From the UHGV virus genome UHGV-0106422: a stretch of DNA of 15,288 nucleotides; one strand, 5' to 3'. The notes under the pieces were generated by a model. The model did no database searches and was not told the DNA's origin. It saw only the letters and a list, made by a program, of their open reading frames with translations. Positions 1 through 15,288 of this stretch are shown here, piece after piece. The DNA is from a virus. How positions within the stretch are numbered: the first letter of the stretch is position 1; the number at the start of each line of letters is the position of its first letter. The position numbers and the translations under genes are program-made.

Positions 1-1
1 T

Positions 2-1066
2 CGCTGGGCCGGTAAAGCGGTAAAACTCAATGTTGGTGATTATCCTGCAATGAGTATCACCCAGGCAAGAGAGCGTCGCCAACAATTCAGAAACTGGTTA
101 ACTGAGGGACTGGATCCGCGAGAGCAGGTGAAGCTGGATAAGCAGACCCGACAGGAAGCGATGTCCGTTGCCGAAGCGTTCAATTACTGGATTGAAAGGC
201 ACTGTATCGCTAACGGGCTAGTTAAAGTCGATTACTATCGCCAGGTGTTTGAGAAACATATCGCCGAACCGATGAAGAATGTCAAAGTCGATAACACAGC
301 GAAAATGCACTGGATCAACGTCTTCGATTCTATAGAAAGCAGGGTGATGGCTCATTACATGCTTTCGCTGTGCAAACGGGCGTTTAGGTTCTGCGTTAAC
401 AGAAGTGTGATCGCCTCAAACCCACTCGAGGGATTACTGCCATCTGATGTCGGGCAAAAGCCTAAAAAGAGAACTCGCAGGATGGACGATGACGATCTGC
501 GCAAAATCTATCAGTGGTTGAAAAGCCATATGTCGATAGAGTCCGTTTTCCTGGTGAAATTTATTATGCTTACCGGATGCCGTACGGCTGAGATTCGACT
601 TAGTGAGAGATCATGGTTTCGATTGGATGATAATGAGTGGGTCGTGCCTGCGGGCAGTTATAAAACTCGGGTACATATTAGAAGGGGACTCTCAGACGCC
701 GCCGTTAACCTGGTCAGAAATCACCTCAAGAAAATAAACACCAATCACCTAGTGACTTCACAACGTAAAATTGATGGCGGGATTAAAGATTCGCCCGTTC
801 ATTCACCTGTGGCATCCAATTACGCCCGTTCTATTTGGAATGGAACAGGTATGGCAGAGTGGTCGCTTCATGATATGAGGCGGACGATAGCCACAAATCT
901 CTCTGAGTTAGGTTGCCCGCCGCACGTAATTGAAAAGCTGCTCGGGCATCAGATGGTGGGGGTTATGGCGCATTACAACCTTCATGACTATATCGATGAT
1001 CAGAAACACTGGCTCCGCGTTTGGCAGAGCCATCTTGAAGAGATCATCGGAGAGCCCTTCAGTTAA
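2..1066 (+). CDS. int: Tyrosine recombinase/integrase, P4-type; 5' end truncated by window edge (frame open from position 2; first in-window ATG at 50)
   Basis: C-terminal catalytic region ([37 protein letters not shown]) matches the tyrosine-recombinase R..H..R..Y pattern; N-terminal '[18 protein letters not shown]...GLDPRE' is typical of P4-like integrases. No stop upstream in frame, so partial. Confidence 0.85.
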
Positions 1067-1260
1067 TTTATCTTCTTTTTATCCTCCCACTCTTTGATTG
1101 ACTCAGAGCGCCAGCGGTTAGGGTTGCCGGGCCAGTCAGGGGGTGGGAACGGGCATACGAAGCCCCGAGGCATTGTGTCTGCACTTTGCCATGACCAAAG
1201 GGTTTTGCGTGAAATTTTGTAGCGACTGGTCAGGTCTGACGTTACCAAAATATCATCCAT
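1063..1260 (-). CDS. xis: Excisionase / AlpA-family small DNA-binding protein (Xis-like)
   Basis: 65 aa from ATG at 1260 with GGAGAGAG RBS; the track's longer form starts at a TTG (1305). Small HTH-like protein ending ...IKEWEDKK, resembling AlpA/Xis C-termini. Convergent with int; stops overlap at the TTAA at 1063-1066. Confidence 0.6.
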
Positions 1261-1301
1261 AGCTCTCTCCAGTTGCCCGTTCGGGCCATTCAAAATCTTT
1301 T

Positions 1302-1544
1302 TCAACCAACCTGCCCGGGCAGGGAGCGGAGACGGCGCATGCCGGTCATCGCTGTGGCCACGTAGCTCGCCTTTCGGTTCACCACCTCCACCCAGACTTT
1401 CACGCCTTCAACCTTCACCGTATAAGTCTCTTTCATCTTGCTTCGCCCATAGTCGCCATATGTTTGCAAGTGAGCTGCCAGCGCGATGTCGCATGCTTGG
1501 CGAGCTAAAGGTGATTGCTTACTTCCTCGATTGATCAGTCGCAT
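1302..1544 (-). CDS. Hypothetical phage protein (80 aa)
   Basis: ORF with AAGGAG RBS upstream of ATG at 1544; lies between the recombination module and xis. No recognisable motif. Confidence 0.5.
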   Translation of the reverse strand: MRLINRGSKQSPLARQACDIALAAHLQTYGDYGRSKMKETYTVKVEGVKVWVEVVNRKASYVATAMTGMRRLRSLPGQVG

Positions 1545-1582
1545 ATAATCTCCTTGAGGGAGGGTTACCCCTCCCGGTCTCG

Positions 1583-2701
1583 TCAGGCCACGTATTCCGG
1601 TTTCATATCCGCCAGGGTGATGCTGAATTGATCGTGCAGTTCATCGCCTAAGTGACGCTTTGAAGATGCAAGCATGCGCTCGGCTTCAGCGAACCGTTCG
1701 GCTGCATGCGGCTCGTCGGGCTGGGGCAGGGATTTAATAGCCTCCTCAACCTTGTTGCGTGCATCCACTAGGTAATAACGCTTTACGGCTTTGTTTTTCA
1801 GCTCGGTGAATAGTGCGGATCCCAGCGTAGCTTTCGCCGTTTCAATGTCGGCACGCAGCGATTTGGCGCTATCCACGTCCTGAGCAGATTCGATGCGTTC
1901 GCGGAAATCATCGGCAAGAGAGTCGACATTTACCGACGATTCCTGTGCGCTTTGCGTGGTTGTGACGGTGTCACCTGAGATATCAGCCAGGCTAACGCGT
2001 TGCGGCGTTGGGTTGATCTCTTTTTCTGTGCGCTGTTCAATCTCATCAGGGGTGTACACACCAAGAACAACTGCAGGGCAATATAGGCGCGCCCAGTATT
2101 TGAGTGCCAGATAAGCGATCTGCTGTTTCGGGTTTGATACCCAAAGTGGAGAATTACGTGTGATTACGCTGGAGAGGAAAACAGGCTCTCCCCAGGTGAT
2201 ATCACTTTCACCGCGAATAACGGCACCTACCCGTACCGACAGTCCTTGTTCATCAGCACTTTCCCAACCGCGTACCATTTCTTTCTTGTCGTACGTCCCG
2301 CCACCTTTCGCAGGCTTTTTAACGGTTATCTCGCGGCTGCTGGCACATTTCGACCAGTCGCCCTCGTACTCATAGTGAAAGCGGCCAACGATGGCGTTTG
2401 AGCTGGAGATCACCGCATTAACCAGTTGCGCTTCGTATCCCAGGACACCGTTAACCAGGTGCGTCTTTTGCGCCACGGCGTAAGGGTTCATACCCCACTG
2501 CATCGCCTGCATGATGATGGCCATGCAGTCTGCCGGATTGCCGCGGAGGTGCTCAGGCACCGTTACGGCTGCCTGTGCCATCAACCCGGCGACAGACTGA
2601 AGCTGGGTTAAAGCCTGCACGTTGAAAATGGCATTGCTGGCTGAGATCGTGTTTGGAGTCTGCTGTTCAGCGGTTACGATATTCGTGTTTTCCATCATCA
2701 T
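1583..2701 (-). CDS. Single-strand annealing protein, RecT/Bet family
   Basis: N-terminal segment GNPADCMAIIMQAMQWGMNPY... resembles the conserved Bet/RecT core (lambda Bet ...ALLIVANQYGLNPW...); a later segment SPLWVSNPKQQIAYLALKYW resembles the RecT ...GPWVTHWEEMAKKTAIRRL region. AAGGGGA RBS; starts 6 bp after the exonuclease gene stop. Confidence 0.75.
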   Translation of the reverse strand: MMMENTNIVTAEQQTPNTISASNAIFNVQALTQLQSVAGLMAQAAVTVPEHLRGNPADCMAIIMQAMQWGMNPYAVAQKTHLVNGVLGYEAQLVNAVISSSNAIVGRFHYEYEGDWSKCASSREITVKKPAKGGGTYDKKEMVRGWESADEQGLSVRVGAVIRGESDITWGEPVFLSSVITRNSPLWVSNPKQQIAYLALKYWARLYCPAVVLGVYTPDEIEQRTEKEINPTPQRVSLADISGDTVTTTQSAQESSVNVDSLADDFRERIESAQDVDSAKSLRADIETAKATLGSALFTELKNKAVKRYYLVDARNKVEEAIKSLPQPDEPHAAERFAEAERMLASSKRHLGDELHDQFSITLADMKPEYVA

Positions 2702-2706
2702 TCCCC

Positions 2707-5616
2707 TTATGCCTGAGTACGCAGAGCTTCAAGGCGGCGCAGGTCGAAGTCGTTCAGTTCGTCGGTGTAGTCAGCAGTGATTGGCGCTGGCCATTCACCT
2801 GTGTCGAATCCGGTTGCGATATTGCGCATCGCTTTGCGGTACTCGAGCATACCCAGCTCCAGTAGTTCAGCGGATGCCTCGATGATGGCGATCCAGTGGT
2901 AGTTCTCGTCTTTGTTGACGAAAATCCAGAAGAACTGATCCAGCGCTGCGGTTTCGCAGTACATAGCCGCGCTCAGGTGATAATCACGTTCAATAATTTC
3001 CCGGTGTAGCCTGGCGCGCAGGCTTTCCTGCTTAACATTCCACATGCTGATGGTTTTCAGGTCTGCACCTATACGCACGCCATCCAGGTCGATCTCAAGG
3101 TCAGGGCGCACACGAACTTCCAAGCCCGTCTCCTCGTCAAAACCAAAGTAGCTCACCTCAACGGCTCGGCTAGGGTGGGTCAGCAGCATGCCGGCGGTCG
3201 GGTGTGCCAGAAGCGCTTTTTGAATATTCAGCGCGGTGCTCAGCTGCTGGCGGGTGACCAGCACTTTTCCTTCCGGGTTATCGCGCCAGGCATCCAGCAG
3301 TTCGTCGGCAAATACGTCATCTGGTTTGACTGCCTTCACGGCCTGGATCATGTCTGCTTTGGTACCGGACACTTTCAGTGGTGCCGGTTTCTGTGCTTCC
3401 TGAGCCACAAGGTCAGGGTTGATGATTGCCAACTGCTCCAGCAGCGCGTCACGGCTGCCGCTGGTTTTAACCGGCGGCGGCAGGGTGGCGTTGTACTCTT
3501 TAATGCATGCCTTCATTGCCGTCGCCGTCTGCTTCTGGTCACCATCAATACGCTGGAAGTCAGCTGGCAGCGCCATATAGTTCTGTGCCGTTTCTTCCAG
3601 GTTAGCGCCAAGCGGAACCTGCGGCGGCAGGGTGGCGTTGTACTCTTCCAGTAACACCTTGATGTCGTCGGCAGACAGCAGCGCCGGCAGGCTGGCATTG
3701 TGCTCATCGATAAAGGCGCGCAGGGTCGCGGCCGTTGTGAATGCGCCTTCAGGGATCACCGGTTCAACGCTGAATTCTGCGTCCAGTAGTTCAGGCTGCA
3801 ACGCCAGCGCATGCACCAAGTTGCCCATGTCCAGCACCGCTGAGCGCTCTTTGACGATGGTTTTCTCTACGTGGCGCGCATTGAAGTACATCAGCGAAAC
3901 GCGCGCATCTTTCACCTGGGTTGAGCTGATGCCGTTGGCGGCGTGGTAAACCTCGTTTGGCAGCCCTTCATAGCGGCCTGGCTCGAAATAAGCGGGATAA
4001 ACAACAGCTGGTTCGTCAGATTGCGCTTCTGGCTCGGTTTGTGCTGCAACTGGTTCGGTTTGGCTTACAGAATCGCTATTTTTGGCGACAGAATCCGTAT
4101 TCTGGTCTACATCGTCCTTCTGGCTGGTATCTGACTCTTCACCAGACTCCAGACTGCTTTCGCCTGGCTGTACTTCATCACCAGCTTGTTTTTCATCACT
4201 GACAGTTTCTTGAACCTGCACATTGCTGGTGGTCTCCGTAGCCTTTTTCGTGCCATGAGTTGCTGAGTTCTGCAGCAAAGCCGTAACGTCGAATATTCCG
4301 TTGCCGACATTTTTAACCAGTTCTTGTTCGACTTTCTGCGGTTGTGCTGCCGCTTCCTCTGCGCGGCGGCGTGCTCCTTCTTCACGCACGCGTTGCAGGT
4401 TCTCTTCGTGAGTGCAGAAGGATTTGCGCGGAGACTCCTTACCTTCAGGTTGGGGAATTTCCTGTGCTGCGGGTTCAGCTTCATGCAACGGCAATAACTC
4501 GACCGCGGAATTGAACGCGGCTGTCATGGTCTGGTTAACAAATTCCAGGTGAGCGACAGGAGTTAAATGAATATTTTCCGGTGCGATACGTACCAGGTTA
4601 AAAATAGCCGTGCGGTTAACACCCAGAACGCCTGGCTGATTGCGCAGGATGTTGCTCCATGATTTCCATGGTTCTTCTTTTTTGGTCACGATTTCTTTAG
4701 CGCGACGAAGAATGCTGCCCGGGATCTCGAAGTGGTTGAAGTCCATAGGCAGAAGGGCACACGCAATCTCTAAATCGAGAGTGTCCAGTGTGTGGTGTGC
4801 CTCAGGTCCACGGTCAGTGACGTAACCGCCGTCGGCATTAGTGCCGGAATCAGTACGCTGCACACTACTGATGCGATTACCGGCGGCCCATTCACGCGCC
4901 AGGATGCCACGGTCAATGTAATCAGTCGCCGCCCACATTCTGGTGAAACGGAGTACCAGCGCGAGTTCGTGACGCTTGTCCTGGCTGAACACTTTGCGAA
5001 TGGCATCGGTGTAGCGCCACAGGTCTTTGGTGTCGTAACCCTTCACTTCCGGGCAGTTCTCAGCAGCTAACAGCAAGTTCTGGACGTAACTGTTATCAGT
5101 GTCCATCTCCAGCGCGCCGATAGCTTCGTACTCTTCATGGGTTACGTGGTGGCGCAGTTCGTCGGCGGTGAACTGGGAAAGCAGTTGCTTACGAAACGGC
5201 ATCTGCACTACCGGGTAGAGGGTTGAGTCGTCGTCGTGTTCGTCCAGCGTGATGCCAGCGGTTTCTGACAGCGTTGACTCAGTAGTTATGTGACTATCAA
5301 CGGTCTGAGCCGTTTTCTCGTCAGAGTTTTCAGCTGTGACTTTTGGCAGCCAGGTGCGGTCATCGTTCTGCAGTTCGTAGCGTTCGCACCAGGTGTAATC
5401 CACTGCGCCTTCTTCCGGCAGGTCGTCATATACCGGGAAATCGGTGCGGATTGGTTTGGCATAATCTTTACCGCGGCCAGTTTCTTCAATTCCGGCTTCT
5501 TCCAGTGCCACATCGAGTTGGAGATTGGCGCGCGCTACACTTTTCGCAGTGAACCAAATCACTGCATCTTTCTTGCCAGACTTCTGACTGGCTTTTATCA
5601 GATGGAAAAATTCCAT
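2707..5616 (-). CDS. recE: Exodeoxyribonuclease VIII (RecE-like), 969 aa
   Basis: N-terminus (…DAVIWFTA…FPVYDDLPEEGAVDYTWCERYEL…GNRISSVQRTDSGTNADGGYVTDRGP) closely parallels recalled E. coli Rac RecE; the C-terminal ~300 aa carries the nuclease-type domain. Immediately upstream of, and co-oriented with, the annealing protein. Confidence 0.85.
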   Translation of the reverse strand: MEFFHLIKASQKSGKKDAVIWFTAKSVARANLQLDVALEEAGIEETGRGKDYAKPIRTDFPVYDDLPEEGAVDYTWCERYELQNDDRTWLPKVTAENSDEKTAQTVDSHITTESTLSETAGITLDEHDDDSTLYPVVQMPFRKQLLSQFTADELRHHVTHEEYEAIGALEMDTDNSYVQNLLLAAENCPEVKGYDTKDLWRYTDAIRKVFSQDKRHELALVLRFTRMWAATDYIDRGILAREWAAGNRISSVQRTDSGTNADGGYVTDRGPEAHHTLDTLDLEIACALLPMDFNHFEIPGSILRRAKEIVTKKEEPWKSWSNILRNQPGVLGVNRTAIFNLVRIAPENIHLTPVAHLEFVNQTMTAAFNSAVELLPLHEAEPAAQEIPQPEGKESPRKSFCTHEENLQRVREEGARRRAEEAAAQPQKVEQELVKNVGNGIFDVTALLQNSATHGTKKATETTSNVQVQETVSDEKQAGDEVQPGESSLESGEESDTSQKDDVDQNTDSVAKNSDSVSQTEPVAAQTEPEAQSDEPAVVYPAYFEPGRYEGLPNEVYHAANGISSTQVKDARVSLMYFNARHVEKTIVKERSAVLDMGNLVHALALQPELLDAEFSVEPVIPEGAFTTAATLRAFIDEHNASLPALLSADDIKVLLEEYNATLPPQVPLGANLEETAQNYMALPADFQRIDGDQKQTATAMKACIKEYNATLPPPVKTSGSRDALLEQLAIINPDLVAQEAQKPAPLKVSGTKADMIQAVKAVKPDDVFADELLDAWRDNPEGKVLVTRQQLSTALNIQKALLAHPTAGMLLTHPSRAVEVSYFGFDEETGLEVRVRPDLEIDLDGVRIGADLKTISMWNVKQESLRARLHREIIERDYHLSAAMYCETAALDQFFWIFVNKDENYHWIAIIEASAELLELGMLEYRKAMRNIATGFDTGEWPAPITADYTDELNDFDLRRLEALRTQA

Positions 5617-5756
5617 GTGAGATCCTCATTTTTGGGTGTTAGAATCCCCGGACCATTGATAGCGCCCATTGGGTTAACTTTGGTTTTAATGTTGTTTCCG
5701 GTGTAACTTTGGTCGGTGAGGCCGGACATGGCGGGCCCACTTCGGTGGGCTTTCGC

Positions 5757-6044
5757 TTAACTGACGGCTACGATCGCCTCATTCATAAAATCTTGCTTGT
5801 ATGTACGGTAGGTTCCCCAGCCGGCGTAATCGCTATCGCTGATTTTGAGTGCCAGCAAGCTGATCTCCTCAATGGCGCAGTGCGGGCAATCAAACTTGCC
5901 AAGCACATAGCCACCGTCGAGAATGACTGTTGTTTCACCGTTTGTAGTTGAGTGAATAACGCCTGATACTTTCTTCTCGCAGTTGAATGCAGCCACTTCT
6001 TTATTCACTGCTTTCAGGTTCATTTCGATTTTTACGATTTCCAT
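5757..6044 (-). CDS. Hypothetical early protein (95 aa) with a C..C-P-H-C motif
   Basis: Clean ORF upstream of recE in the leftward operon; no match to lambda Gam/Kil/CIII by eye. Confidence 0.5.
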   Translation of the reverse strand: MEIVKIEMNLKAVNKEVAAFNCEKKVSGVIHSTTNGETTVILDGGYVLGKFDCPHCAIEEISLLALKISDSDYAGWGTYRTYKQDFMNEAIVAVS

Positions 6045-6129
6045 AAAATCTCCAGTTGTTAAATTAAGGGTGTAAGAAGCCGCGCCAAATTAATGGCGAA
6101 TTTTTCATTTCATATTTCAGGACTGCTAT

Positions 6130-6288
6130 TTAACTTTCGTGCGCCATCTGGTCGTATTCAGCGCATTGCTTAGAGCAATATTCTTTTTCTTTCTGTGCCA
6201 GTTGCGAACCGTTGAGATAGAGCAAGGTGCTCTTTACTTCTGCGCCTTCTTCAACAGGCTTGTGGCAATAACCACATTCTTTTTTCAT
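6130..6288 (-). CDS. Small zinc-ribbon-like protein (52 aa; below the ORF-track size cut-off)
   Basis: Manual translation of the minus strand: MKKECGYCHKPVEEGAEVKSTLLYLNGSQLAQKEKEYCSKQCAEYDQMAHES; CxxC...CxxxC arrangement; AAGGACAGG upstream of the ATG; fills an otherwise empty gap in a tightly packed operon. Confidence 0.4.
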   Translation of the reverse strand: MKKECGYCHKPVEEGAEVKSTLLYLNGSQLAQKEKEYCSKQCAEYDQMAHES

Positions 6289-6321
6289 CACCTGTCCTTA
6301 AAGTGTTTTGGCAACTCTCCG

Positions 6322-6528
6322 TTAATGGCTGAGGCCATTCCCCAGACCGTTCAGATAAACTTCAACCAGCAAATCCTTGGTGTAAGTCATTTCTACGCCG
6401 CGATGCAGATACAAACGTCCGCGAGCGTTAGCTGATGCCGTCCAGGTTGAGTCTTTGTGTTTGACGAGCATCCCCGGCTGAACTGCGCCGCGGTTTACTG
6501 TCTGTGTACCGTAGTGCTGGTTTACCAT
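6322..6528 (-). CDS. Hypothetical early protein (68 aa)
   Basis: ORF with AAGAGGAAA RBS before ATG at 6528; same strand as the neighbouring small genes. Confidence 0.45.
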   Translation of the reverse strand: MVNQHYGTQTVNRGAVQPGMLVKHKDSTWTASANARGRLYLHRGVEMTYTKDLLVEVYLNGLGNGLSH

Positions 6529-6669
6529 GATTTCCTCTTGGCCTTATCGCGGCGAACGGAACGGTTAATACAAGACTTCAACGCATTTATTCAGTGTTTC
6601 AATGGGCGGTGGATGGCCGCCGGTTGTCATAAATGGGCAGACTCGAAAATCTGCCTATGTATGGCCGAT

Positions 6670-6690
6670 AAAAAACCCGCCGGAGCGGGT
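6670..6690 (-). terminator. Candidate intrinsic terminator (stem CCCGC/GCGGG followed by a U-run on the minus-strand transcript)
   Basis: Plus strand reads AAAAACCCGCCGGAGCGGG; on the minus strand this is a GC stem-loop followed by TTTTT, abutting the stop of the 6690..6932 gene. Confidence 0.45.
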
Positions 6691-6932
6691 TATTCACACT
6701 TTGCATGCCTGACCGGCTTTAATTTCCACTCGGTGGCCTTAAGCTCAATTTCCTTCCTGATTTCCTGATACGTTTTCACGGAGCCATCAGCGTTTTTATT
6801 GAACGGATTGAGCGTTTGATAAAACTTTTCCCGTCGTTTGCAGGCTTTACCGCATACGTCACACTTCCCTGATTTCTCAGCAAAAGTTGAGATCTCATCG
6901 AACCGAGTTGTTGTAATTCCACCCCATCCCAT
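6690..6932 (-). CDS. Hypothetical early protein (80 aa) with CDVCGKAC motif
   Basis: ORF with GAGGGTAAGG RBS; cysteine pair suggests a small metal-binding protein. Confidence 0.5.
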   Translation of the reverse strand: MGWGGITTTRFDEISTFAEKSGKCDVCGKACKRREKFYQTLNPFNKNADGSVKTYQEIRKEIELKATEWKLKPVRHAKCE

Positions 6933-6989
6933 CGCCTTACCCTCTGTCGTTACCCGCTGATGCGGGAGAAATGCTTTATCTATCAGCTT

Positions 6990-7202
6990 CTACAACTCAT
7001 CACGAATCTGTGAGAGTGTGCTGATCGCCTGGTAATGACCGCGACGCTGCTCTTCTGTTTTGAACGCACGCATATCGTCTTTTATCGATGCGATTGCCTT
7101 ATTCAGAACTTCCACTTGCGCTTCTTTAATCGCCTGTTTGCGTGGCTTCTGACGCTTCTTAGGAAGGTCTCTTAAACACGCCGGAATGTATGTCTGAGTC
7201 AT
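6990..7202 (-). CDS. Hypothetical basic protein (70 aa), first gene of the leftward early operon
   Basis: AAGAGGA RBS; Lys/Arg-rich N-terminal segment (PKKRQKPRKQAIKEAQ). Position and charge are compatible with an N-like antiterminator or other nucleic-acid binder, but no sequence match recognised. Confidence 0.45.
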   Translation of the reverse strand: MTQTYIPACLRDLPKKRQKPRKQAIKEAQVEVLNKAIASIKDDMRAFKTEEQRRGHYQAISTLSQIRDEL

Positions 7203-7514
7203 AAAAAATCCTCTTGTGATTCAGCCCAGCCCACTCAACTTCGAATGGACTGGAATAAATCTGTTTGCGCTTCGCACCTCTCATCCCGCCAGTGTTGCCC
7301 GTTCCCACGCCTTTATCGCTCTCGCGAGGGGGTAGCCTCACACCGACCGGTTCGCCGCCGGTGATACGCCGCATTTTGTGCGTTGGGGTCTAAACAGGAT
7401 TGCCGAGTGCTGTTCCGACTTTGCATGTTGTTAAAAAGCAGGCGACTTGCTGTCCGCCGCTGGCTAACTTCGCTCAGCTGTCGATGTTTCGTTTCGATGA
7501 GCTGATTATTAACT

Positions 7515-7591
7515 AATGGTTATTTTCAGTCAATAACCATTGGTTAATTATTTTGCCATTGGTTATTAAGGTTATGATTTATTGGTTAATT
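7515..7591. promoter_or_regulatory. Array of ATTGGTTA(A/T)T motifs, including a perfect 10-bp inverted repeat (AATGGTTATT-7 bp-AATAACCATT)
   Basis: Inverted repeat at 7515-7524 / 7532-7541, with further direct copies at about 7542-7550, 7557-7566 and 7581-7590, in an AT-rich gap upstream of the 7652 ORF. Motif differs from the TTAACT half-sites of the cI/cro operators. Confidence 0.4.
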
Positions 7592-7651
7592 TAGTTCTGT
7601 TATGGATTTGTGCAGTACGTGCTATGCTGCAAAAAACATCAGGAGGTAGCT

Positions 7652-7870
7652 ATGGAACGAGATGAACGTGCAGATGAACGAATGGCCTTCATGGCTGGAG
7701 AGGTTGGGTGCGTAGTGTTCGAGCTGGTTTATAACGGAATTGAAATCAATAAGGACAACATTGTGGGATTTCTGGAAGGGAAGCGCAAAGCCGTAGGAAA
7801 CGTGATCCATAAGGGGATGCTACGGGATGCAGCTGAGATAGTCAGGAAGGGTAGTAAAGCTGTGAAGTAG
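7652..7870 (+). CDS. Hypothetical small protein (72 aa)
   Basis: Strong AGGAGG RBS 6 nt before ATG at 7652; the track's longer 7610 start lacks an RBS. Convergent with the cI-linked cassette and sharing its terminator region. Confidence 0.5.
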   Translation: MERDERADERMAFMAGEVGCVVFELVYNGIEINKDNIVGFLEGKRKAVGNVIHKGMLRDAAEIVRKGSKAVK

Positions 7871-7874
7871 GCAC

Positions 7875-7897
7875 AAAAAACCCGGCGCGGTGGCCGG
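7875..7897 (-). terminator. Intrinsic terminator closing the cI-linked cassette (possibly bidirectional)
   Basis: Plus strand AAAAAACCCGGCGCGGTGGCCGGG: GC-rich 6-bp stem CCCGGC/GCCGGG, followed on the minus-strand transcript by UUUUUU; sits 9 bp past the stop of the 7906..8838 gene. Confidence 0.6.
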
Positions 7898-7905
7898 GTG
7901 AGATA

Positions 7906-8838
7906 TTAAAGAACCGATTTAACAAGATGGTTTTTACGGTACAGACCTATGCGATCATTGTGAATCTCAGTAGTCTCCACTAAAAGAGAAACAATCTGTC
8001 CGACCTTGTGTTTTTTTTGTATTAAATCTAGCATTTCAATCGGATAGGAAGCCTTTAAATGTTCACCACCAACATCAAGCTCCAGCTTCCCATATTTGGA
8101 TAGAACGACCAGTTCGCCTGTAACCGTTTCAGTAATGGGAGGGGATGAAATGGTTGATGTAAGTCTACTCACCAAGTACTTAATTTTATTGGAGTCAATA
8201 GTTGCCACCTTGGTGCCATTACTAAATGGACCGGTCCAACTTGCATCAAATGTTAAGTTGTGTTTATCGCATTCCTCTACGATTCTCTTAAGGCTTACAG
8301 TGGAATTGTATCCAATTTCAGCGACGTGATTCATGAAGTTGTTGTCGTCATCGCTTAACAACAAATCGAATATGCCTTTTACAGCCTTGCTGGGTACTGT
8401 TTCTACTAATTCTGCTATTCCTGTAGAGAAGGTGACGCCCAATTTTGTAGACCCAGGGGATAAATCAGCCAGCCTGAGGTTTAAGGAGCTTTTCACGTCG
8501 TAGGGAACTTTTTTTGAGTCCTTGCCTGAGGCAATTTTGTGTGTTGCTCTTTGTATTAGCGCTGCAAGATTTGTTGAAATAGCCCCAAGCAGCTCTAAAG
8601 GAATAGAGCCAAAGTCAACCTCAGAGCCTTTCAGCCGCAGCTCAAAAAAATCGATAAGTGGGTGCCGACTATCTTGCTTTAATTTTTCGGCCTTCAAATC
8701 GCTCAGATGAGAATCCATGGAGCGATAAAGAAGCATGTCAGCAAAGGACCTGGTTTTGTTTTGCTTCATTGCATCGACTTCTTTTTGAATGAAATCAATG
8801 CGTTTATCGCAATTTTTAAACATTGATTTATCATTCAT
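7906..8838 (-). CDS. Hypothetical protein (310 aa), distal gene of the cI-linked AT-rich cassette
   Basis: Start ATG overlaps the stop of the upstream gene (ATGA, translational coupling); visibly AT-richer than flanking phage core genes; no recognisable catalytic motif or TM segment by eye. Confidence 0.7.
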   Translation of the reverse strand: MNDKSMFKNCDKRIDFIQKEVDAMKQNKTRSFADMLLYRSMDSHLSDLKAEKLKQDSRHPLIDFFELRLKGSEVDFGSIPLELLGAISTNLAALIQRATHKIASGKDSKKVPYDVKSSLNLRLADLSPGSTKLGVTFSTGIAELVETVPSKAVKGIFDLLLSDDDNNFMNHVAEIGYNSTVSLKRIVEECDKHNLTFDASWTGPFSNGTKVATIDSNKIKYLVSRLTSTISSPPITETVTGELVVLSKYGKLELDVGGEHLKASYPIEMLDLIQKKHKVGQIVSLLVETTEIHNDRIGLYRKNHLVKSVL

Positions 8839-9314
8839 AAAAAAATCCTCACTAACCCTTTCGGGTTTTCACTGCGATCAAAACCAAACCAACCGCGCCA
8901 GTAGCTACGCCAGTACTCATAATCATAGTTAGGGTCATCTAAATTCTTCATGAGTAGTAGGACATCAATTTTGTAGTTTTGTTTGATGTAGTTTCGGTCA
9001 AGCAAATTATCGACGCGGCCCCGAAGCATGACAGGTATTGAGTTTATATTGCTATAGTCACATACCAACAAAATATCAATATCATCAGGCTCTGGTTTAG
9101 ACGTGGTGTATGAACCATCAACCCATATTTCTGTAAAACAGCCATATTGAGCAGATAATTCTCGAATAGATTCGAGTAGCTGTATAAAATTACAGTATAG
9201 CATGCCTCGCCTGGATGATGAAGGAAAGCAATCGACACAATACGATTTTAATCCAGCTTCATCCATGTCATGGAACCCTGGCTCAAACAGGGGTGGGTAA
9301 TTAATTTTATCCAT
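8835..9314 (-). CDS. Small nucleotidyltransferase-fold-like protein (~159 aa from ATG 9314; track shows a GTG-initiated 175 aa form to 9362)
   Basis: Motif ...EIWVDGSYTTSKPEPDDIDILLVCD... fits the minimal Pol-beta-type NTase signature (G-S, about 9 residues, then D-x-D, followed by hydrophobics). AAGG 6 nt upstream of ATG 9314; none before the GTG. AT-rich. Confidence 0.6.
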   Translation of the reverse strand: MDKINYPPLFEPGFHDMDEAGLKSYCVDCFPSSSRRGMLYCNFIQLLESIRELSAQYGCFTEIWVDGSYTTSKPEPDDIDILLVCDYSNINSIPVMLRGRVDNLLDRNYIKQNYKIDVLLLMKNLDDPNYDYEYWRSYWRGWFGFDRSENPKGLVRIFL

Positions 9315-9491
9315 AAAAAACCTTGCTATACATTTGTTTTTTTTTATTAAAAATCTAACCACCGAAATGGTGACGGCAAGATGTTACATGGGGTTACAAT
9401 CAGCCAATACACCGCATTAAATAATTTTTTCACCAGCTATGCGCCGACCAGAACACCTTGCCCATCACCCAAACGTCTCATCAGGCCACCG

Positions 9492-10268
9492 CTACAGCAA
9501 TACCGAGTACCAGAAGAGACGGCCAATTATCTCGACATCATCAATATCAGCCTCTTCGTCTGGGTAGGAGTCGTTGTTGTAACTGCGGATGATCAGCTTC
9601 CCACCTGGCTTACGATACAGCTGTTTAATGCGCTTGAGTTGACCATTCCCGCCATCTGTCTGACCAATGGCATACAGTTTCCCATCAACTATGCGTTTGT
9701 TGTTCGTATCGACGGCTACAGTCGTACCATCCGGTATCACAGGTTCCATGCTGTCGCCAGTAGCAGGGAAACACAGGATGCCAGACCCATCTGTGTTAGC
9801 TCCAACGCGGCGGAGGGTTGCCTTTGAGAACCTGAGCTTAAAACCATTGTGATCTTCGCTGTGTACGCGTCCATCGCCACACGCAAATTCAATATCCTTA
9901 AGAAACGGCACTTCAACCTCGTCAGCAGGAAGCGGTGTGTTTTTATCCCAGGCGTCAACAGTTCCCCATTCAGATTCTGGAGGGATAGATGACTCCCTAC
10001 GCAGTTCAGGTTCGGGATCATTCCTTCCGTATTCAAGCCACTCAGGCCGTACCCCAAGCCAGCGGCTAAGGGCAAGGATATTGGTTTGGTCTGGTATCGC
10101 TGATGCGTTAAGCCATTTCCAGATCCCGGGCTCAGATACAGTAATTCCTTGGGACTTCATAGCCTCTCTGATCCTACCAGCCTGCCCACGACCACCAACG
10201 CCAGCATCAAGCAATGCAGCGCGAAGTCTTTTCGAGAATTCTTCTTTTAAATCGTCTTTTTTAACCAT
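9492..10268 (-). CDS. cI: Phage repressor CI (HTH N-terminal domain plus S24 LexA-like autopeptidase C-terminal domain)
   Basis: C-terminal GDSMEP motif is characteristic of the LexA/CI S24 self-cleaving family; divergent from the cro-like gene across an operator-rich gap. Confidence 0.9.
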   Translation of the reverse strand: MVKKDDLKEEFSKRLRAALLDAGVGGRGQAGRIREAMKSQGITVSEPGIWKWLNASAIPDQTNILALSRWLGVRPEWLEYGRNDPEPELRRESSIPPESEWGTVDAWDKNTPLPADEVEVPFLKDIEFACGDGRVHSEDHNGFKLRFSKATLRRVGANTDGSGILCFPATGDSMEPVIPDGTTVAVDTNNKRIVDGKLYAIGQTDGGNGQLKRIKQLYRKPGGKLIIRSYNNDSYPDEEADIDDVEIIGRLFWYSVLL

Positions 10269-10352
10269 TCGTTAATTATCAATTAGAGTTGACATAACTG
10301 TCAGTTAAGATATAACCTTAACTCGTAGTTAATATAGTTAACGGAAAACACT
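10269..10352. promoter_or_regulatory. Divergent immunity control region (OR-like operators with PR and PRM)
   Basis: Three palindromic sites with TTAACT/AGTTAA half-sites at about 10272-10286, 10295-10307 (TAACTGTCAGTTA) and 10318-10332 (TTAACTCGTAGTTAA), spaced 23 bp centre to centre. PR candidate: -35 TTGACA (10289-10294), 16-bp spacer, -10 TATAAC (10311-10316). On the minus strand GATAAT sits 6 nt before the cI ATG, suggesting a leaderless PRM transcript as in lambda. Confidence 0.7.
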
Positions 10353-10598
10353 ATGAACCCAATGCAATTTGCAATCGAAGCTGTAGGCGGTCAAACCGCT
10401 GCTGCTCGCCTGTGTGGCCTATCGAACGTTGCTATTCACAAGTGGGTGAAGAACGCGGCGCTGCCTCGTACTGAGTACACAGAGAAAACCAACTATTCGC
10501 AGCTTTTGGCTGACGCATCAAATGGGCAGTTTACGGCTGAATGGCTCCGTCAAGCAGCTAACCCTGACCGAATTAAACAAGATTCACATGCCGCCTGA
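10353..10598 (+). CDS. cro: Cro-like HTH regulator (81 aa)
   Basis: First gene rightward of the operators; HTH-like segment (QTAAARLCGLSNVAIHKWVK) typical of Cro/YdaS-type phage regulators. Confidence 0.7.
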   Translation: MNPMQFAIEAVGGQTAAARLCGLSNVAIHKWVKNAALPRTEYTEKTNYSQLLADASNGQFTAEWLRQAANPDRIKQDSHAA

Positions 10599-10606
10599 CC
10601 GGCGGC
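10590..10606 (+). other. GC-rich stem-loop at the cro-cII junction (candidate nutR boxB or tR1-like element)
   Basis: GCCGCC-TGACC-GGCGGC: 6-bp GC stem with 5-nt loop, overlapping the cro stop codon; no U-run follows, so not a classical intrinsic terminator. Confidence 0.3.
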
Positions 10607-10638
10607 CATAACCAATTAAATCAGAGGAATTATCGCAA

Positions 10639-10860
10639 ATGGAGACCTTAACGACACGCAACAAAGCGGAGGCACGACGAATTGAGAGCTGGGTGCAGCG
10701 GCAAATCGCAGATCTTGGGACAACCAGGATCGCCGAAGTAGCTGGCGTGAACAAATCAACCGTAAGCCGGTGGCGGGAGAACCTGGTGCCGAACATGTCG
10801 CTGCTGCTCGCCATCCTGATTTCTAGCAGGGATGGAGTGAAGGGAGATTTTGAAGCATGA
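10639..10860 (+). CDS. cII: Transcriptional activator CII
   Basis: RIESWVQRQIADLGTTRIAEVAGVNKSTVSRWRENLVPNMSLLLAILI parallels recalled lambda CII (ALRIESALLNKIAMLGTEKTAEAVGVDKSQISRWKRDWIPKFSMLLAVL); canonical position after cro. Confidence 0.85.
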   Translation: METLTTRNKAEARRIESWVQRQIADLGTTRIAEVAGVNKSTVSRWRENLVPNMSLLLAILISSRDGVKGDFEA

Positions 10861-10941
10861 ACGCAGAAAGGGCAAAAGCCGCGGTGCTGGAACACCAACG
10901 GCTTTCAGGTGCAAAAACAGTGCGTAATTGCGGAGAACAGT

Positions 10942-11850
10942 ATGTCAAACACCGCTGAAATAATCAATTTCCCAAATAAAACCGAACAACCGGGAGGTCG
11001 TATGGCCGACCTGTCGAACGGGTATACCAAGGTCGCTAACGAGATCCAACAGCTTAAGCCTCGCCTGAGACTGTCAGGCCGGGAATGGCAATGTTTTGAG
11101 GCGGTGATCTGGCTTACCTACGGCTGGAACAAGAAACAGGACCGCGTGACAAATACGGTTATTGCCGAGCTTACGGGCCTGAGCGATACGCATGTATCGG
11201 ACGCGCTTAAGTCTCTCGCAGAACGCAAAATCATCTTTTCACAGAAGCAGGGCATGATGAAAATCGTCGGTGTAAACACTGACCTTTCAGCATGGATTTT
11301 AGACAAACCGGAAACGGGAAGAAAATTCCCGAAAACGGGAAAATCCTTCCCGAAATCAGGAATAACCTTCCCGAAAACGGTAGACACCCAATACAAGAAC
11401 AAGAACAGTATTAAAAGATCTTCGTCCGAGAATTCTGACGAATCCTCTGACGCACGTCTGAAGAAATTTTTATCAACTCATCCTGAAGCTGCGGTCTACA
11501 CACCATCCGGTGCGAAGTGGGGCTCTGCTGAAGACCTCGAGACAGCTAAGTGGATTTCCTCCAGGGTGAAGCTGATTAACCCAACCTGCAAAGCCCCGGA
11601 CATGACCTCCTGGTCTAACACTGTTCGCCTGATGCGCCAGATAGACAACCGGTCGCACCAGGACATCTGCGCGCTGTATGACTGGGCTAGCAAACACCAC
11701 TTCTGGCAGACCAACATCCTGAGTCCCGAAAGCCTGCGTAAGCAGTGGGACAAGCTGACAATGCAGCGTAACGCCGGAGGTGAGCAGCGCGCTGTCAAGC
11801 CAGATCTGGACTTCAACAACACTGACTGGGCCTATGGGGTGATCCGATGA
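10942..11850 (+). CDS. O: Replication initiator protein O
   Basis: From ATG 10942 (GGAGAA RBS): MSNTAEIINFP...LSGREWQCFEAVIWLTYGWNKKQDR... matches the lambda O N-terminal DNA-binding domain (MTNTAKILNF...LTKRQFKVLLAILRKTYGWNKPMDR); lambda-like proline/lysine-rich linker; iterons inside the gene. The track start at 10909 is an unsupported upstream extension. Confidence 0.9.
   Translation: MSNTAEIINFPNKTEQPGGRMADLSNGYTKVANEIQQLKPRLRLSGREWQCFEAVIWLTYGWNKKQDRVTNTVIAELTGLSDTHVSDALKSLAERKIIFSQKQGMMKIVGVNTDLSAWILDKPETGRKFPKTGKSFPKSGITFPKTVDTQYKNKNSIKRSSSENSDESSDARLKKFLSTHPEAAVYTPSGAKWGSAEDLETAKWISSRVKLINPTCKAPDMTSWSNTVRLMRQIDNRSHQDICALYDWASKHHFWQTNILSPESLRKQWDKLTMQRNAGGEQRAVKPDLDFNNTDWAYGVIR
11305..11425. 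repeat. Origin of replication: iteron array plus AT-rich unwinding region inside the O gene
   Basis: Palindromic iterons of the form TTCCCGAAAACGGGAA at about 11308, 11326, 11347 and 11368 (21-bp periodicity), followed by the A/T-rich stretch ACAAGAACAAGAACAGTATTAAAAGATC. Same architecture as ori-lambda within O. Confidence 0.7.
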
Positions 11851-12536
11851 AATCTCTTGCAGAGCAGATGCGTAACCACGACCGCGAGCAGATGAGCCGC
11901 ATGGCCCATAACCTGCCAGAGCAGTACCAGGAGTGCGCGCCGGTCGAGCAGGTGGCGCAGGTATTCAACAAGCTGTTCAACGAGCTGCGCGCCGCGTTCC
12001 CGGCCAGCATGGCGAACTTCCGCACCCAGGAAGACCTGAACGAATTCCGCCGTCAGTGGCTGCTGGCGTTTCAGGAGAACGGGATCCACACCATGGCTCA
12101 GGTCGATGCCGGCATGCGCATTGCCCGCCGCCAGGAGCGCCCATTCCTGCCGTCGCCGGGCCAGTTCGTCGCCTGGTGCAAGCAGAGCGGCGGCGCGCTG
12201 GGCGTCAACGTTGACCAGGTGATCGCCGAATACTGGGACTGGCGTAACCGCTCGTTCGAATTCATCTCCAGCGAGCAATTTCCATGGTCGCAGCCGGTCA
12301 TGTACCACATTTGCGTAGAATTGCGCCACCGCAGCACCGAGCGCCAGTTAACGCATGGTGAACTGGCACGCGAGGCAGGCGATCTGCTGGACATGTGGGA
12401 AAGGCGCGTCACCGAGGGTAAGCCAGTGCCGCCGGTACGCCGGGCTATTGCCGCACCAGCTGCCGAGCAAGGGCCGACGCCGATCCAGCTGCTGCTGGCC
12501 AAGTACAACCGCAACAAGTCGAACGGGATGGTGTGA
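11847..12536 (+). CDS. P: Replication protein P (helicase loader)
   Basis: MKSLAEQMRNHDREQMSRMAHNLPEQY...RPFLPSPGQFVAWCKQ is near-collinear with recalled lambda P (MKNIAAQMVNFDREQMRRIANNMPEQY...RPFLPSPGQFVAWCRE); ATGA overlap with the O stop. Confidence 0.9.
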   Translation: MKSLAEQMRNHDREQMSRMAHNLPEQYQECAPVEQVAQVFNKLFNELRAAFPASMANFRTQEDLNEFRRQWLLAFQENGIHTMAQVDAGMRIARRQERPFLPSPGQFVAWCKQSGGALGVNVDQVIAEYWDWRNRSFEFISSEQFPWSQPVMYHICVELRHRSTERQLTHGELAREAGDLLDMWERRVTEGKPVPPVRRAIAAPAAEQGPTPIQLLLAKYNRNKSNGMV

Positions 12537-12537
12537 C

Positions 12538-12882
12538 ATGAACATAACAATCCGTGAGCAGGTGCTGGCAGCCCTGCGCAACAACCCAGGGTTGAACAAC
12601 GCCAAACTGGCAGGGCTTATCGGCATGGACACCAAAAAGATATCCGGAACGGTGAGCACGCTGCTGGCAGACGGCCTGATCGAGTTCGAAGGCAAGCACG
12701 GACAGCGGCTTTATCGGCTGACCGATTACGGCATGAAATACGCACCAGAAACAATCCCGGCTATGCCGAAGGGAAATTCGAAGCTGGTGCAGCGTACAGA
12801 GGCAAACGTGATCTGCCAGGAGTGCCGCAACAGCGCGGCGATGAAGCGAGTATTGATGGTTTGGGGGAGGGCAGGGGTATGA
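12538..12882 (+). CDS. ren: Ren-like protein (114 aa)
   Basis: C-terminus ICQECRNSAAMKRVLMVWG resembles the recalled lambda Ren C-terminus (FKECRQSAAMKRVLAVYG); sits directly after P as ren does in lambda; ATG 1 nt after the P stop. The track's 12355 start is an out-of-context extension overlapping P. Confidence 0.65.
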   Translation: MNITIREQVLAALRNNPGLNNAKLAGLIGMDTKKISGTVSTLLADGLIEFEGKHGQRLYRLTDYGMKYAPETIPAMPKGNSKLVQRTEANVICQECRNSAAMKRVLMVWGRAGV

Positions 12883-13385
12883 GCAATAAATACGAAGATC
12901 TGATTAAAAGCGCCAGGATGAATGCCGATTGTGGTGAGCACATGTCACCGGCAGAAGTTACGACTCTCCTTAACGTGGTTGAAGCCAAGTGCGCGGCGCT
13001 GGCTGCGGAGTTGAGTGCAATTGAAGCAATTCACAATGACGCGGTGTTCATCACCGATGCTCATTACGATCAATGCCATCCAGAAGTACAGAAGATTATC
13101 GGAGCTCTGGCTGTGCTGCAGATTCCTGCGTACCAGGCTTTCCTGGCTGAAGTGCGGGCGCAAGCCCACAAGGAAGGCGCTCACTTTGTTGCCAACCGAA
13201 TGCTGGCTGCATGGGAGGCTGGGTTTATCGAAGACACAGCGAAGAACGCTGCGGACATCGCACGAATGATACTGACCTCCACAGAGTTTATGGATGATGC
13301 GCCGGAAGGCGATTTCGATCGCTCGTTCGCTGATGGTGTACTCGAAGACATCGCCGCCCAGATTCGCAAGGGGGACGCGCAATGA
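12879..13385 (+). CDS. Hypothetical phage accessory protein (168 aa)
   Basis: ATG at 12879 preceded by GGGGAGGGCAGGGG; ATGA overlap with the ren-like stop; the track's 12822 start overlaps the upstream gene. Confidence 0.6.
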   Translation: MSNKYEDLIKSARMNADCGEHMSPAEVTTLLNVVEAKCAALAAELSAIEAIHNDAVFITDAHYDQCHPEVQKIIGALAVLQIPAYQAFLAEVRAQAHKEGAHFVANRMLAAWEAGFIEDTAKNAADIARMILTSTEFMDDAPEGDFDRSFADGVLEDIAAQIRKGDAQ

Positions 13386-13837
13386 GCAACATCGACAAAC
13401 AGGCGCTGCGCCTAACAGCAGAAAAGGCAAAAGATAACTTCATGCCGAACTTCATGGTACCAACTCGCGATTTACTGGCGCTGCTGGATGAGCTGGAAGC
13501 CGCAGAGAAGCGCATAGCAGAACTGGAGGGGGGCGCATTCAATCCCGCAATTCTTGATGTGGTAGCAGAACGCCAGCGGCAGAAAACCATTGAGGGATGG
13601 ACGCCAGAGCATGACGACGAGCACTGCAACGGCGAACTGGCAATGGCGGCGGTTTGCTACATCAACGAAACCGGAACAGTAAACCGCAATGGTGGCAAGC
13701 CGTGGGGATGGCCGTGGGATGCGTCCTGGTGGAAACCTAAAACCCGTCGTCGCAACCTGGTAAAAGCAGGGGCACTTATTTTGGCGGAAATTGAGCGTTT
13801 AGACCGCGACGCTGGCATTGGCGTGAAGGGGGAGTGA
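13382..13837 (+). CDS. Hypothetical phage accessory protein (151 aa), acidic/His-rich core (TPEHDDEHCNGE) and Trp-rich C-terminus
   Basis: ATGA overlap with the upstream gene; coding-like composition. Function not assignable by eye. Confidence 0.6.
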   Translation: MSNIDKQALRLTAEKAKDNFMPNFMVPTRDLLALLDELEAAEKRIAELEGGAFNPAILDVVAERQRQKTIEGWTPEHDDEHCNGELAMAAVCYINETGTVNRNGGKPWGWPWDASWWKPKTRRRNLVKAGALILAEIERLDRDAGIGVKGE

Positions 13838-13838
13838 G

Positions 13839-14057
13839 GTGACAAAAATATTCCGGAAGAATTATCCACGTCAAAGTCGGGTTAAAGAGGCTCTATTTTT
13901 CCTTCTCTTTCTTATTTTAATGGCTCCAATATCACCGATAGTCCTCATCTGGTTAGCAGGAGAACAGGCAGAAAAAATAGCTGAATGGTATAGCTCCATC
14001 GTATGGGGACCATTTAAAAAAATGCACAACAAATTAAATCCATACAGGGAGGGCTAA
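13839..14057 (+). CDS. Small hydrophobic (putative membrane) protein, 72 aa, GTG start
   Basis: GTG 1 nt after the upstream stop with GAAGGGGGAG RBS; one strongly hydrophobic segment (ALFFLLFLILMAPISPIVLIWLA); AT-rich relative to neighbours. Confidence 0.4.
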   Translation: MTKIFRKNYPRQSRVKEALFFLLFLILMAPISPIVLIWLAGEQAEKIAEWYSSIVWGPFKKMHNKLNPYREG

Positions 14058-14060
14058 CCC

Positions 14061-14906
14061 ATGACCAAACTAACCAAAGAACGCTTGGAAGAAATCGCAG
14101 AGCTTGCAAGAAAGGCGACGTACAAGCCATGTGCAATGCACATGACGAATTTATTGGTAGTATGCGATAGCGAAGTTATCGAGGAAATGGCCCGCCAGTT
14201 GCTTGCAAGCATGGAGCAGGAGCCTGTGTCGTACACCTGTAGTGACGCGTTAGATGATGTTTACTGTGGTAGCGCAGCCATGATGGGGCCCGCTGGCGCT
14301 GTGGGAGAAGTACCACTCTACGCAGCACCACAGTTACCGCAGCCAGCGGTGTTATCAGTGTCTGAGGGCGTGCTTAAAAGCCTCTTACCCGATGTTGAGA
14401 AGTCCGAGTTCTGGTTTGAGCATAATGGGAAAATCTTTTTTGAAGGTGTGAGGTTTAACAATGCGGTATTTGAAGCCTGCCGCGCCGCCATGCTTCAGGC
14501 CGAACCTGTAAGTAATAGTGATGAGTTACCGCTGGACTATCTGCAAGGACACAAAGACGGCCTGGAGTGGGCTGCACAATTGGCAGAAGCCAATCATCCG
14601 CAAACAGGTGACTGGTTGTACGATGACCCAATCGATCTTGCCAGGGCGATTCGCAAAGGTCCGGATATGCCTACTGTTCAGGGTGGCAACTCTCCGGTGA
14701 TTCCTGATGACGTACGCCGCATGGACTGGCTGGTATCGAAAACCGTTGATGTTCGTGAGCCTATGGTTTACGGAAGCCATAGCCTTTTCTGGTCGCAGAC
14801 CATCACGGATGAAGAGGATGATTATCACGCGACTAAATTACGCGAGCAAATCGATGCGGCTATGGCAGCTGAGCAGGCAGCAGCACCGCAGCAGGAGGCC
14901 GAATGA
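14061..14906 (+). CDS. Hypothetical phage accessory protein (281 aa)
   Basis: GGGAGGG RBS before ATG 14061; long ORF with acidic C-terminus; no motif recognised. Confidence 0.65.
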   Translation: MTKLTKERLEEIAELARKATYKPCAMHMTNLLVVCDSEVIEEMARQLLASMEQEPVSYTCSDALDDVYCGSAAMMGPAGAVGEVPLYAAPQLPQPAVLSVSEGVLKSLLPDVEKSEFWFEHNGKIFFEGVRFNNAVFEACRAAMLQAEPVSNSDELPLDYLQGHKDGLEWAAQLAEANHPQTGDWLYDDPIDLARAIRKGPDMPTVQGGNSPVIPDDVRRMDWLVSKTVDVREPMVYGSHSLFWSQTITDEEDDYHATKLREQIDAAMAAEQAAAPQQEAE

Positions 14907-15238
14907 ACGATTTCGTTAAGCGAATTCAGCGTCTTGAGGCGGAGCGTGGTAAGACCATCACCACTGAGGTGGAGCTTGTCTCTTACGTCAAAGAGCGCAG
15001 CACTGGAAGCTCTGAGGCTCGTTACTACGTTAAGCACAGCAACCAAAAGACGGTGCTTGAGCAGGGAATGGTGATAAACAGAGATGGGTTTGGTAATCAT
15101 CAAGCCAGCATCATCATCACTGATTTTCCGGGGCAGAAAACTCCGGAAGACGCGGCGCTCAAACTGGCTGATTGGTTAAAGCGCCTAGGAGAGTCCATCG
15201 AGGCTAATTTCAAAAAGCCAGAGGTGGATGATGCCTAA
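14903..15238 (+). CDS. Hypothetical phage accessory protein (111 aa)
   Basis: ATGA overlap with the upstream gene; clean ORF ending about 50 bp before the window end. Confidence 0.6.
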   Translation: MNDFVKRIQRLEAERGKTITTEVELVSYVKERSTGSSEARYYVKHSNQKTVLEQGMVINRDGFGNHQASIIITDFPGQKTPEDAALKLADWLKRLGESIEANFKKPEVDDA

Positions 15239-15288
15239 CCCATTCGACGCATAACTAAACGTCAAGCAACGTTTGATAAAACACTATC

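Follow-up and report, generated by a model that had tools for sequence, protein, structure and literature searches.

At the left end of the window, our term for the whole 15,288-nucleotide stretch of the virus genome UHGV-0106422 that was analysed, an integrase gene (int) and an excisionase gene (xis) face each other and end within the same four letters, TTAA. The earlier note on this DNA, made from the sequence alone, drew attention to these overlapping stops, and proposed that convergent transcription of each gene through the 3' end of the other could provide antisense cross-regulation of integration versus excision. The question that this locus raises is whether the shared stop is a regulatory device, or the ordinary way in which two facing genes meet. 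The features first needed to approach it are the following:

2 to 1066, plus strand: int, a tyrosine integrase of the phi80 type whose 5' end lies off the window (PF00589, PF13356; identity to phi80)
1063 to 1260, minus strand: xis, a 65-amino-acid excisionase, or recombination directionality factor (phrog_1553; identity to phi80 Xis)
1063 to 1066, no strand assigned: TTAA stop/stop overlap of int and xis (direct reading; same in the phi80 records)

We confirmed by direct reading that both stops fall in one TTAA (window 1061-1070 is agTTAAttta), and that the two genes are convergent, with int on the plus and xis on the minus strand. The TAA of int, which is transcribed rightward, towards the prophage interior, occupies 1064-1066; xis starts at the ATG in 1260-1258 and its TAA is read from 1065 down to 1063. 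With stops included, the two coding regions have 4 nt in common (1063-1066), and the stop codons themselves have 2 nt in common. Geometrically, 4 nt is the minimum for a convergent overlap, which at this length is possible only as TTAA, CTAA, TTAG or CTAG, the four tetramers named by Lillo and Krakauer (2007; PMC2174442). In the 58 prokaryotic genomes of that study there were 1890 convergent overlaps, 1218 of them being at least 5 nt long, which leaves about 672 (36%) of the 4-nt type (PMC2174442). The int/xis junction is structurally the same as these generic 4-nt overlaps, but the opposed functions of its two partners make a regulatory reading tempting. We conclude that the shared TTAA is not beyond chance: it belongs to the commonest class of convergent overlap, it reflects ordinary genome compaction, and it is no signal in itself. 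For genome scanning, a TTAA shared between facing genes is the default convergent geometry, and it is not worth flagging alone.

As phi80 references we used X04051, deposited with Leong et al. (1986, J Mol Biol 189:603), and the genome JX871397 / NC_021190. Window 900-1330 is 100% identical in nucleotides to phi80 in both X04051 and JX871397, whereas identity over window 1-1523 is 99.3%, and the match stops inside the DUF4060 gene that precedes xis:

1302 to 1544, minus strand: DUF4060 gene, homologue of phi80 PHI80_33 (PF13269, E 1.5e-34; phrog_1852; RefSeq annotation)

The same 4-nt overlap is found in X04051 (xis 1383..1580, complement; int end 1386) and in JX871397 (xis 26013..26210; int 24808..26016). 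Since both records, the first of them from 1986, annotate it, the junction was already known. Phi80 and the window agree in the junction DNA, the 65-aa Xis, the 4-nt overlap, the position of a putative leftward terminator and the upstream DUF4060-type gene, and they differ only rightward, where from position 1523 Rac-like recT/recE replace the exo/bet-type genes of phi80. Phages HK225, mEp237 and mEpX1 have the same int-xis module as phi80. By this sequence identity, then, the left end of the window is the int-xis module of coliphage phi80, carried in an E. coli prophage.

In E. coli chromosomes that are 99.9% identical to window 1-3000 the integrase lies directly beside kch, and this match places the prophage at the phi80 attachment site (attB region), adjoining kch. 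The window itself begins within int, and att site, int 5' end, pI and attP lie outside it. Of 5426 complete E. coli genomes, 172 contain the junction at an identity of at least 99%, among them laboratory strains with phi80dlacZdeltaM15; this remnant, present in strains of the DH5alpha/NEB5-alpha type, has the identical junction. Window 3000-15288 was covered to at least 80% in none of the complete E. coli genomes. Rightward of the module the prophage is mosaic: the minus strand carries the DUF4060 gene, RecT, a RecE-family exonuclease, Kil and a cI-like repressor, and the plus strand Cro-like and CII-like genes. The DUF4060 gene lies directly upstream of xis, in a leftward transcription unit common to both, and this layout of minus-strand genes makes xis the final gene of a long leftward early operon. 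The operon, recE-recT-DUF4060-xis, would start some 8 kb away, close to the gene for the cI-like repressor.

The integrase call was straightforward. RefSeq labels the gene a site-specific integrase, its DNA is 99-100% identical to phi80 int, and it has both the catalytic domain (PF00589; E 6e-17, 62 bits, cut-off 27) and the N-terminal arm DNA-binding domain (PF13356; 33.8 bits, cut-off 27) that characterise tyrosine recombinases of the phage integrase type; an HDMRRT motif and a C-terminal HY are seen in the translation.

The case of xis called for more care, because the overlap would be an artefact if its minus-strand frame were accidental and not a gene. For a chance frame speak the omission of xis from PGAP and RefSeq annotation, with nothing placed between int and the DUF4060 gene in matching E. 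coli chromosomes and no gene but the integrase listed at the junction for 29 of the 30 genomes sampled, and also a series of searches with the protein. Nothing meaningful was found in Pfam even at E values up to 10, Phage_AlpA (PF05930) included; NCBIfam gave Xis_Gifsy_1 at 19 bits only, below the cut-off of 60; and a profile search of PDB sequences, in which a relative of solved structure might have appeared, returned none below E = 1. A single-sequence AlphaFold2 model, made with a view to a winged-helix DNA-binding fold, reached a mean pLDDT of 55, which is too low for use; in the literature, Fogg et al. assign phi80 Xis to the AlpA family (PMC3064807). However, Xis matches phrog_1553, 'excisionase', over its full length (E 7e-34), and it is 100% identical, by tblastn against phage genomes, to the Xis of phi80, HK225, mEp237 and mEpX1, the first of which is annotated and experimentally used. 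Moreover, homologues of 42-86% identity occupy the same position beside the same type of integrase in at least 12 enterobacterial genera, and the gene has a ribosome binding site:

1267 to 1270, minus strand: GGAG, the Shine-Dalgarno sequence of xis, 7-10 nt ahead of its ATG, corresponding to the 'pot. ribosome binding site' of X04051

The open frame around xis extends on the minus strand over 1063..1305, and we placed the start at the ATG at 1260 because the PHROG match is full length (residues 1-64 of 65) and because of the phi80 annotation. On the strength of the PHROG match, the phi80 identity and the positionally conserved homologues, we rejected the chance frame, to which we attach practically no probability, and both genes stand as the earlier note had called them. 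The routine absence of this xis from RefSeq E. coli annotation affects automated judgement of the ability of a prophage to excise.

Does the palindrome matter, or only the abutment? We compared relatives found with an Xis profile (one genome per species, and viral contigs) together with annotated phages. Of 25 loci from different species, 23 have convergent int and xis that overlap by 4 to 110 nt. The junctions met with in the survey were the following:

Phi80 type: TTAA
Kluyvera: TTAG
Klebsiella phage Kp4864-1: CTAA
Citrobacter: TTAACTGA (8 nt)
More distant relatives: overlaps of 20, 37, 41, 47, 53, 59, 104 and 110 nt

The groups with overlaps of 104-110 nt have a G+C-rich hairpin within int box II and an Xis extended at its C terminus. 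Hence the abutment without a spacer is conserved among the sequences compared and the palindrome is not; as both the tetranucleotide and the length vary among relatives, the palindrome as such carries no meaning. What the phi80/Phi24B-type Int/Xis family keeps throughout is the overlap of the 3' ends.

With no intergenic DNA between int and xis, any terminator must sit within a gene. Of 58 convergent overlaps in E. coli, 21 have a rho-independent terminator within the partner's coding sequence (PMC2174442), and a putative terminator is likewise placed here, inside int:

1010 to 1032, minus strand: terminator-like hairpin of the xis-sense (leftward) transcript (terminator scan, folding, conservation)
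1000 to 1009, minus strand: U-rich tail after the hairpin, GUGUUUCUGA (terminator scan)

The hairpin RNA, read in the xis sense from 1032 to 1010, is UGGCUCUGC-CAAAC-GCGGAGCCA, with a stem of 9 pairs (6 of them G-C) and a loop of 5 nt. It starts 31 nt beyond the xis stop, within the int codons for W-L-R-V-W-Q-S-H, and lies 31-54 nt inside int; hairpin and U-rich tail together are built into the final 57 nt of the gene. The U-tract is interrupted (5 U in 8 nt), and in relatives it is still T-rich (GTGTTTCTG, ATGTTTTTG, ATGCTTTTG). Two further results bear on its standing. First, the hairpin was the sole terminator-like match in a scan of window 1-3000, although one match in 3 kb, against 2.6 expected from shuffles, is no excess. 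Second, its free energy of -15.9 kcal/mol (z = -4.1) was equalled by none of 200 shuffles. The 'putative leftward transcription terminator' of JX871397 (25961..25981) corresponds to window 1011-1031 and thus coincides with it, and a search of Rfam gave no family at the int/xis junction.

In 12 distinct relatives 99% of the cells of the stem alignment are paired, and eight of the nine pairs are invariant; the ninth changes from G-C to G-U in relatives, a change that pairs solely on the xis-sense strand. Compensatory double changes were absent from these 12 sequences, and with them classical covariation. As the stem is invariant and covariation could not serve, we tested synonymous sites in its place, using the 196 int codons that are degenerate and whose amino acid is invariant. 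Ten of these 196 codons are synonymously invariant, and three of the ten are all the degenerate codons that the stem contains, namely, Leu CTC at 1013, Gln CAG at 1025 and Ser AGC at 1028. The contrast between the stem (3/3) and the rest of int (7/193) gives P = 9.7e-5 in a one-sided Fisher test on related sequences. The wobble bases that flank the stem, 1009 and 1033, are variable, and window 1022-1032 is the longest invariant run over 1020 nt of int. These comparisons are good evidence for selection on the hairpin at the nucleotide level, beyond the protein code, and they give the terminator marked 'putative' in JX871397 quantitative support in the form of synonymous-site selection inside int. 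The hairpin thus combines the sequence features of an intrinsic terminator, that is, a G+C-rich hairpin and a U-tract on the transcript strand, with conservation beyond the code; most likely, as judged from sequence, it serves to terminate the leftward xis transcript or to stabilise its 3' end. As a terminator it would end leftward transcripts some 55-65 nt into int unless they are antiterminated; if it works, int and xis RNA would be complementary over no more than about 60 nt, antiterminated transcripts excepted.

A larger structure around the same hairpin would suggest another role. Lambda controls int and xis through pI, inside xis, and through sib/tI retroregulation; its two genes point the same way, with a head-to-tail overlap, and sib lies beyond attP. 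By analogy, leftward transcription that continues past the hairpin, for instance under antitermination, could give an RNA with an extended stem, whose cleavage by RNase III would destabilise the xis mRNA. A 91-nt xis-sense RNA (1075-985) does fold in a nested manner, with an 8-bp outer stem in which window positions of about 993-1000 pair with 1042-1049 and enclose the hairpin (-30.8 kcal/mol, z = -3.6). But pairing in the outer stem falls to 82% across the 12 distinct relatives, with five of the eight pairs broken in one relative or another, and no compensatory changes are seen. Its arms, furthermore, code for the conserved Int residues I-D-D-Q and I-I-G-E, and protein constraint accounts for such conservation as they show. 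We therefore rejected the extended stem as not conserved and free of covariation, and rate sib-like retroregulation as very improbable. The likeness to lambda is of a more general kind: Int alone integrates, Int and Xis together excise, xis is distal in a leftward early operon, and a hairpin or terminator stands at the operon end. The differences are that int of the window is convergent with xis and that the putative terminator is inside int.

The rightward transcript offers less to hold on to. A scan of window 1-3000 found no intrinsic terminator in the int sense, and RNAalifold, applied to the sequence that follows the int stop, returned a covariation term of -0.13 from pairs within the xis coding sequence. 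Since no intrinsic int terminator is predicted, any position for the end of the int mRNA is a guess. The first 40 nt or so after the int stop are C-rich and G-poor, which may be a weak hint of Rho loading, and the int mRNA would continue antisense into xis, probably until Rho-dependent termination. As regards its origin, JX871397 marks a possible int promoter, pI, beside attP; a CII box (TTGC-N6-TTGC, up to 1 mismatch) was not found at this annotated phi80 pI.

How integration and excision are chosen can be approached from the Stx phage Phi24B, the one relative studied by experiment, in which xis, coding for a homologue of about 50% identity, is convergent with an 'inverted' integrase gene. 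There, int is constitutive from its own promoter, independently of CI, whereas xis remains subject to pL and CI; the lysogen is thereby kept stable (Fogg et al., 2011, PMC3064807). The two loci are not the same in detail: in the Stx2a-phage loci used for this comparison the overlap is 37 nt and not 4, and no phi80-type hairpin stands at the corresponding position. By analogy with Phi24B, promoter logic of the same kind most likely operates in the window. Integration versus excision would be set by making Int from a repressor-independent promoter and Xis solely once the repressor is lifted, and any antisense effect would be a secondary trim at most. Taken as a whole, our preferred reading, to which we give a probability of about 85%, is that of a mosaic lambdoid prophage with phi80 int-xis at its left end, an ordinary overlap, a leftward terminator embedded in int, and Int/Xis control set by promoters.

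This leaves the regulatory proposal of the earlier note. Both stops lie in TTAA and each mRNA needs its own stop, from which it follows that functional transcripts cannot end before the overlap, and the refuting outcome that the earlier note offered for the transcripts, an end short of it, cannot arise in working mRNAs. Both mRNAs crossing TTAA have complementary 3' ends, and antisense cross-regulation of int and xis is thus physically possible and, as far as the sequence goes, plausible. The stronger version is a dedicated switch, in which the 3' overlap has been selected and int and xis repress each other through polymerase collision or through an RNA duplex and RNase III; int transcripts would silence leaky xis in the lysogen, and strong leftward transcription after induction would lower int. 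That the junction is crossed by both mRNAs can be read directly from the sequence. The zero-spacer overlap, moreover, is kept in the 23 of 25 species loci despite varying junction sequence and length, and, with no int terminator predicted, int RNA probably covers part of xis. Among other phages, lambda has an OOP RNA that overlaps the 3' end of the cII mRNA and triggers its cleavage by RNase III. In the staphylococcal phage 80alpha, antisense-overlapping operons near the lysogeny module control mutually exclusive states (PMC11087260): the ith-1/tha-1 'noncontiguous' operon consists of opposed, overlapping units in the lysogeny region, an arrangement that favours mutually exclusive expression. 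However, the genes and the host of 80alpha are unrelated to those studied here, and the gene formerly called xis in that phage proved not to be an excisionase (PMC11087260).

Several observations weigh against such a switch. The conserved terminator-like hairpin would hold leftward transcripts to about 60 nt of int. Excision depends on Int and Xis alike; this speaks against strong mutual repression, and to repress int strongly at induction would be self-defeating. Also, the conserved abutment may be no more than inherited gene order in a compact phage genome. The Phi24B study, for its part, explains its phenotype by promoter logic alone, reports no antisense effect, and mentions neither overlap nor antisense (PMC3064807). 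In the papers accessible to us we found no such switch for phi80-type phages, and in the same literature nothing specific on phi80 retroregulation or on convergent int/xis regulation. We therefore consider a dedicated antisense switch unlikely. The same low standing applies to its most elaborate form, an excludon-like arrangement governing the direction of recombination, in which convergent int and xis without a spacer, kept over at least 12 enterobacterial genera with overlaps of 4 to 110 nt, would have been selected, the terminator embedded in int would set how far leftward transcripts invade that gene, and duplex formation or collision would tune the Int:Xis ratio; we regard this form as a doubtful possibility. 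If true, antisense coupling would be one more layer on a well-understood type of switch.

The junction, the overlap type and the putative terminator had all been described, and the element is an ordinary one. What is new is the family-wide survey of overlaps and the test of synonymous constraint, which are refinements rather than discoveries. They concern a module of practical use, as phi80 Int/Xis is widely employed for strain engineering, where helper plasmids supply Int for integration (pAH123) and Int/Xis for excision (pAH129) (PMC2532685).

In distant relatives, which carry integrase (Int) and excisionase (Xis) of the phi80/Phi24B type, the xis open reading frame extends 104-110 nt into the int coding sequence, around locus positions 2688-2880. 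This arrangement was found in the int/xis loci L006, L008, L017-L023, L025, L031 and L032, from prophages hosted by Klebsiella, Rahnella, Ewingella, Serratia, Citrobacter and others. As predicted from these loci, the extended frame would provide Xis with a tail of about 35 amino acids, rich in Pro, Asp and Gln, and it stops at the conserved Val-Met of the 'V-M-A-R-Y' motif of Int. About 45 nt beyond the extended xis end, within the Int box II region, there is a G+C-rich hairpin of 10-11 bp with a T-rich tail.

Within the window, a second cluster of synonymously invariant codons was identified in int, together with a promoter-like match on the opposite strand that overlaps it:

47-91, plus strand, second synonymously invariant codon cluster of int, inside the arm-binding domain
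68 to 39, minus strand, promoter-like match (TTGCCT, 18-nt spacer, GATAAT)

The invariant codons of the cluster are A47, Q62, A65, F86 and R89, and its invariant runs span positions 47-54, 62-69 and 86-91. A promoter for antisense transcription could lie here, or else an element of the mRNA.

Upstream of xis, the DUF4060 gene (1302-1544) contains a perfect palindrome at its 3' end:

1309-1322, perfect 14-nt palindrome CCTGCCCGGGCAGG, immediately upstream of xis

The palindrome is followed on the leftward strand by a partly T-rich stretch; significant folding of positions 1309-1322 was not found (z = -1.2). Within the same DUF4060 gene the identity to phi80, of 99.3%, stops at position ~1523, which is a mosaic joint. 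To its right lie the following features:

1583-2701, Rac-like RecT
2707-5616, minus strand, RecE-family exonuclease of 969 amino acids
5658-5755, plus strand, candidate isrB (RF01386), an Hfq-binding sRNA, from an Rfam match

Whereas phi80 has exo/bet-type genes, this prophage has RecT and a RecE-family exonuclease in their stead. The isrB match scores 38.2 bits (E = 6.5e-4), where the gathering score of the family is 35. It is located immediately upstream of the gene for the RecE-family exonuclease and is read from the other strand. The RecE-family open reading frame encodes 969 amino acids here, compared with 1129 annotated in the closest E. coli genome (L001 8707-12096). The near-identity to this genome, of 99.7%, stops at position 4923, and from 5340 onward identity is only ~84%, so that recE in its N-terminal part, like the genes upstream of it, derives from a different lineage.

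Separately, we observed that xis (1063-1260, minus strand) is omitted by the RefSeq annotation (PGAP) of E. coli chromosomes with identical sequence. In such records, for example NZ_CP173996.1 and NZ_CP029242.1, there is no annotated feature between int and the DUF4060 gene, and the integrase is the sole feature listed at the junction in 29 of the 30 E. coli genomes sampled. Unlike these chromosome records, phage RefSeq records do include xis as an annotated gene.
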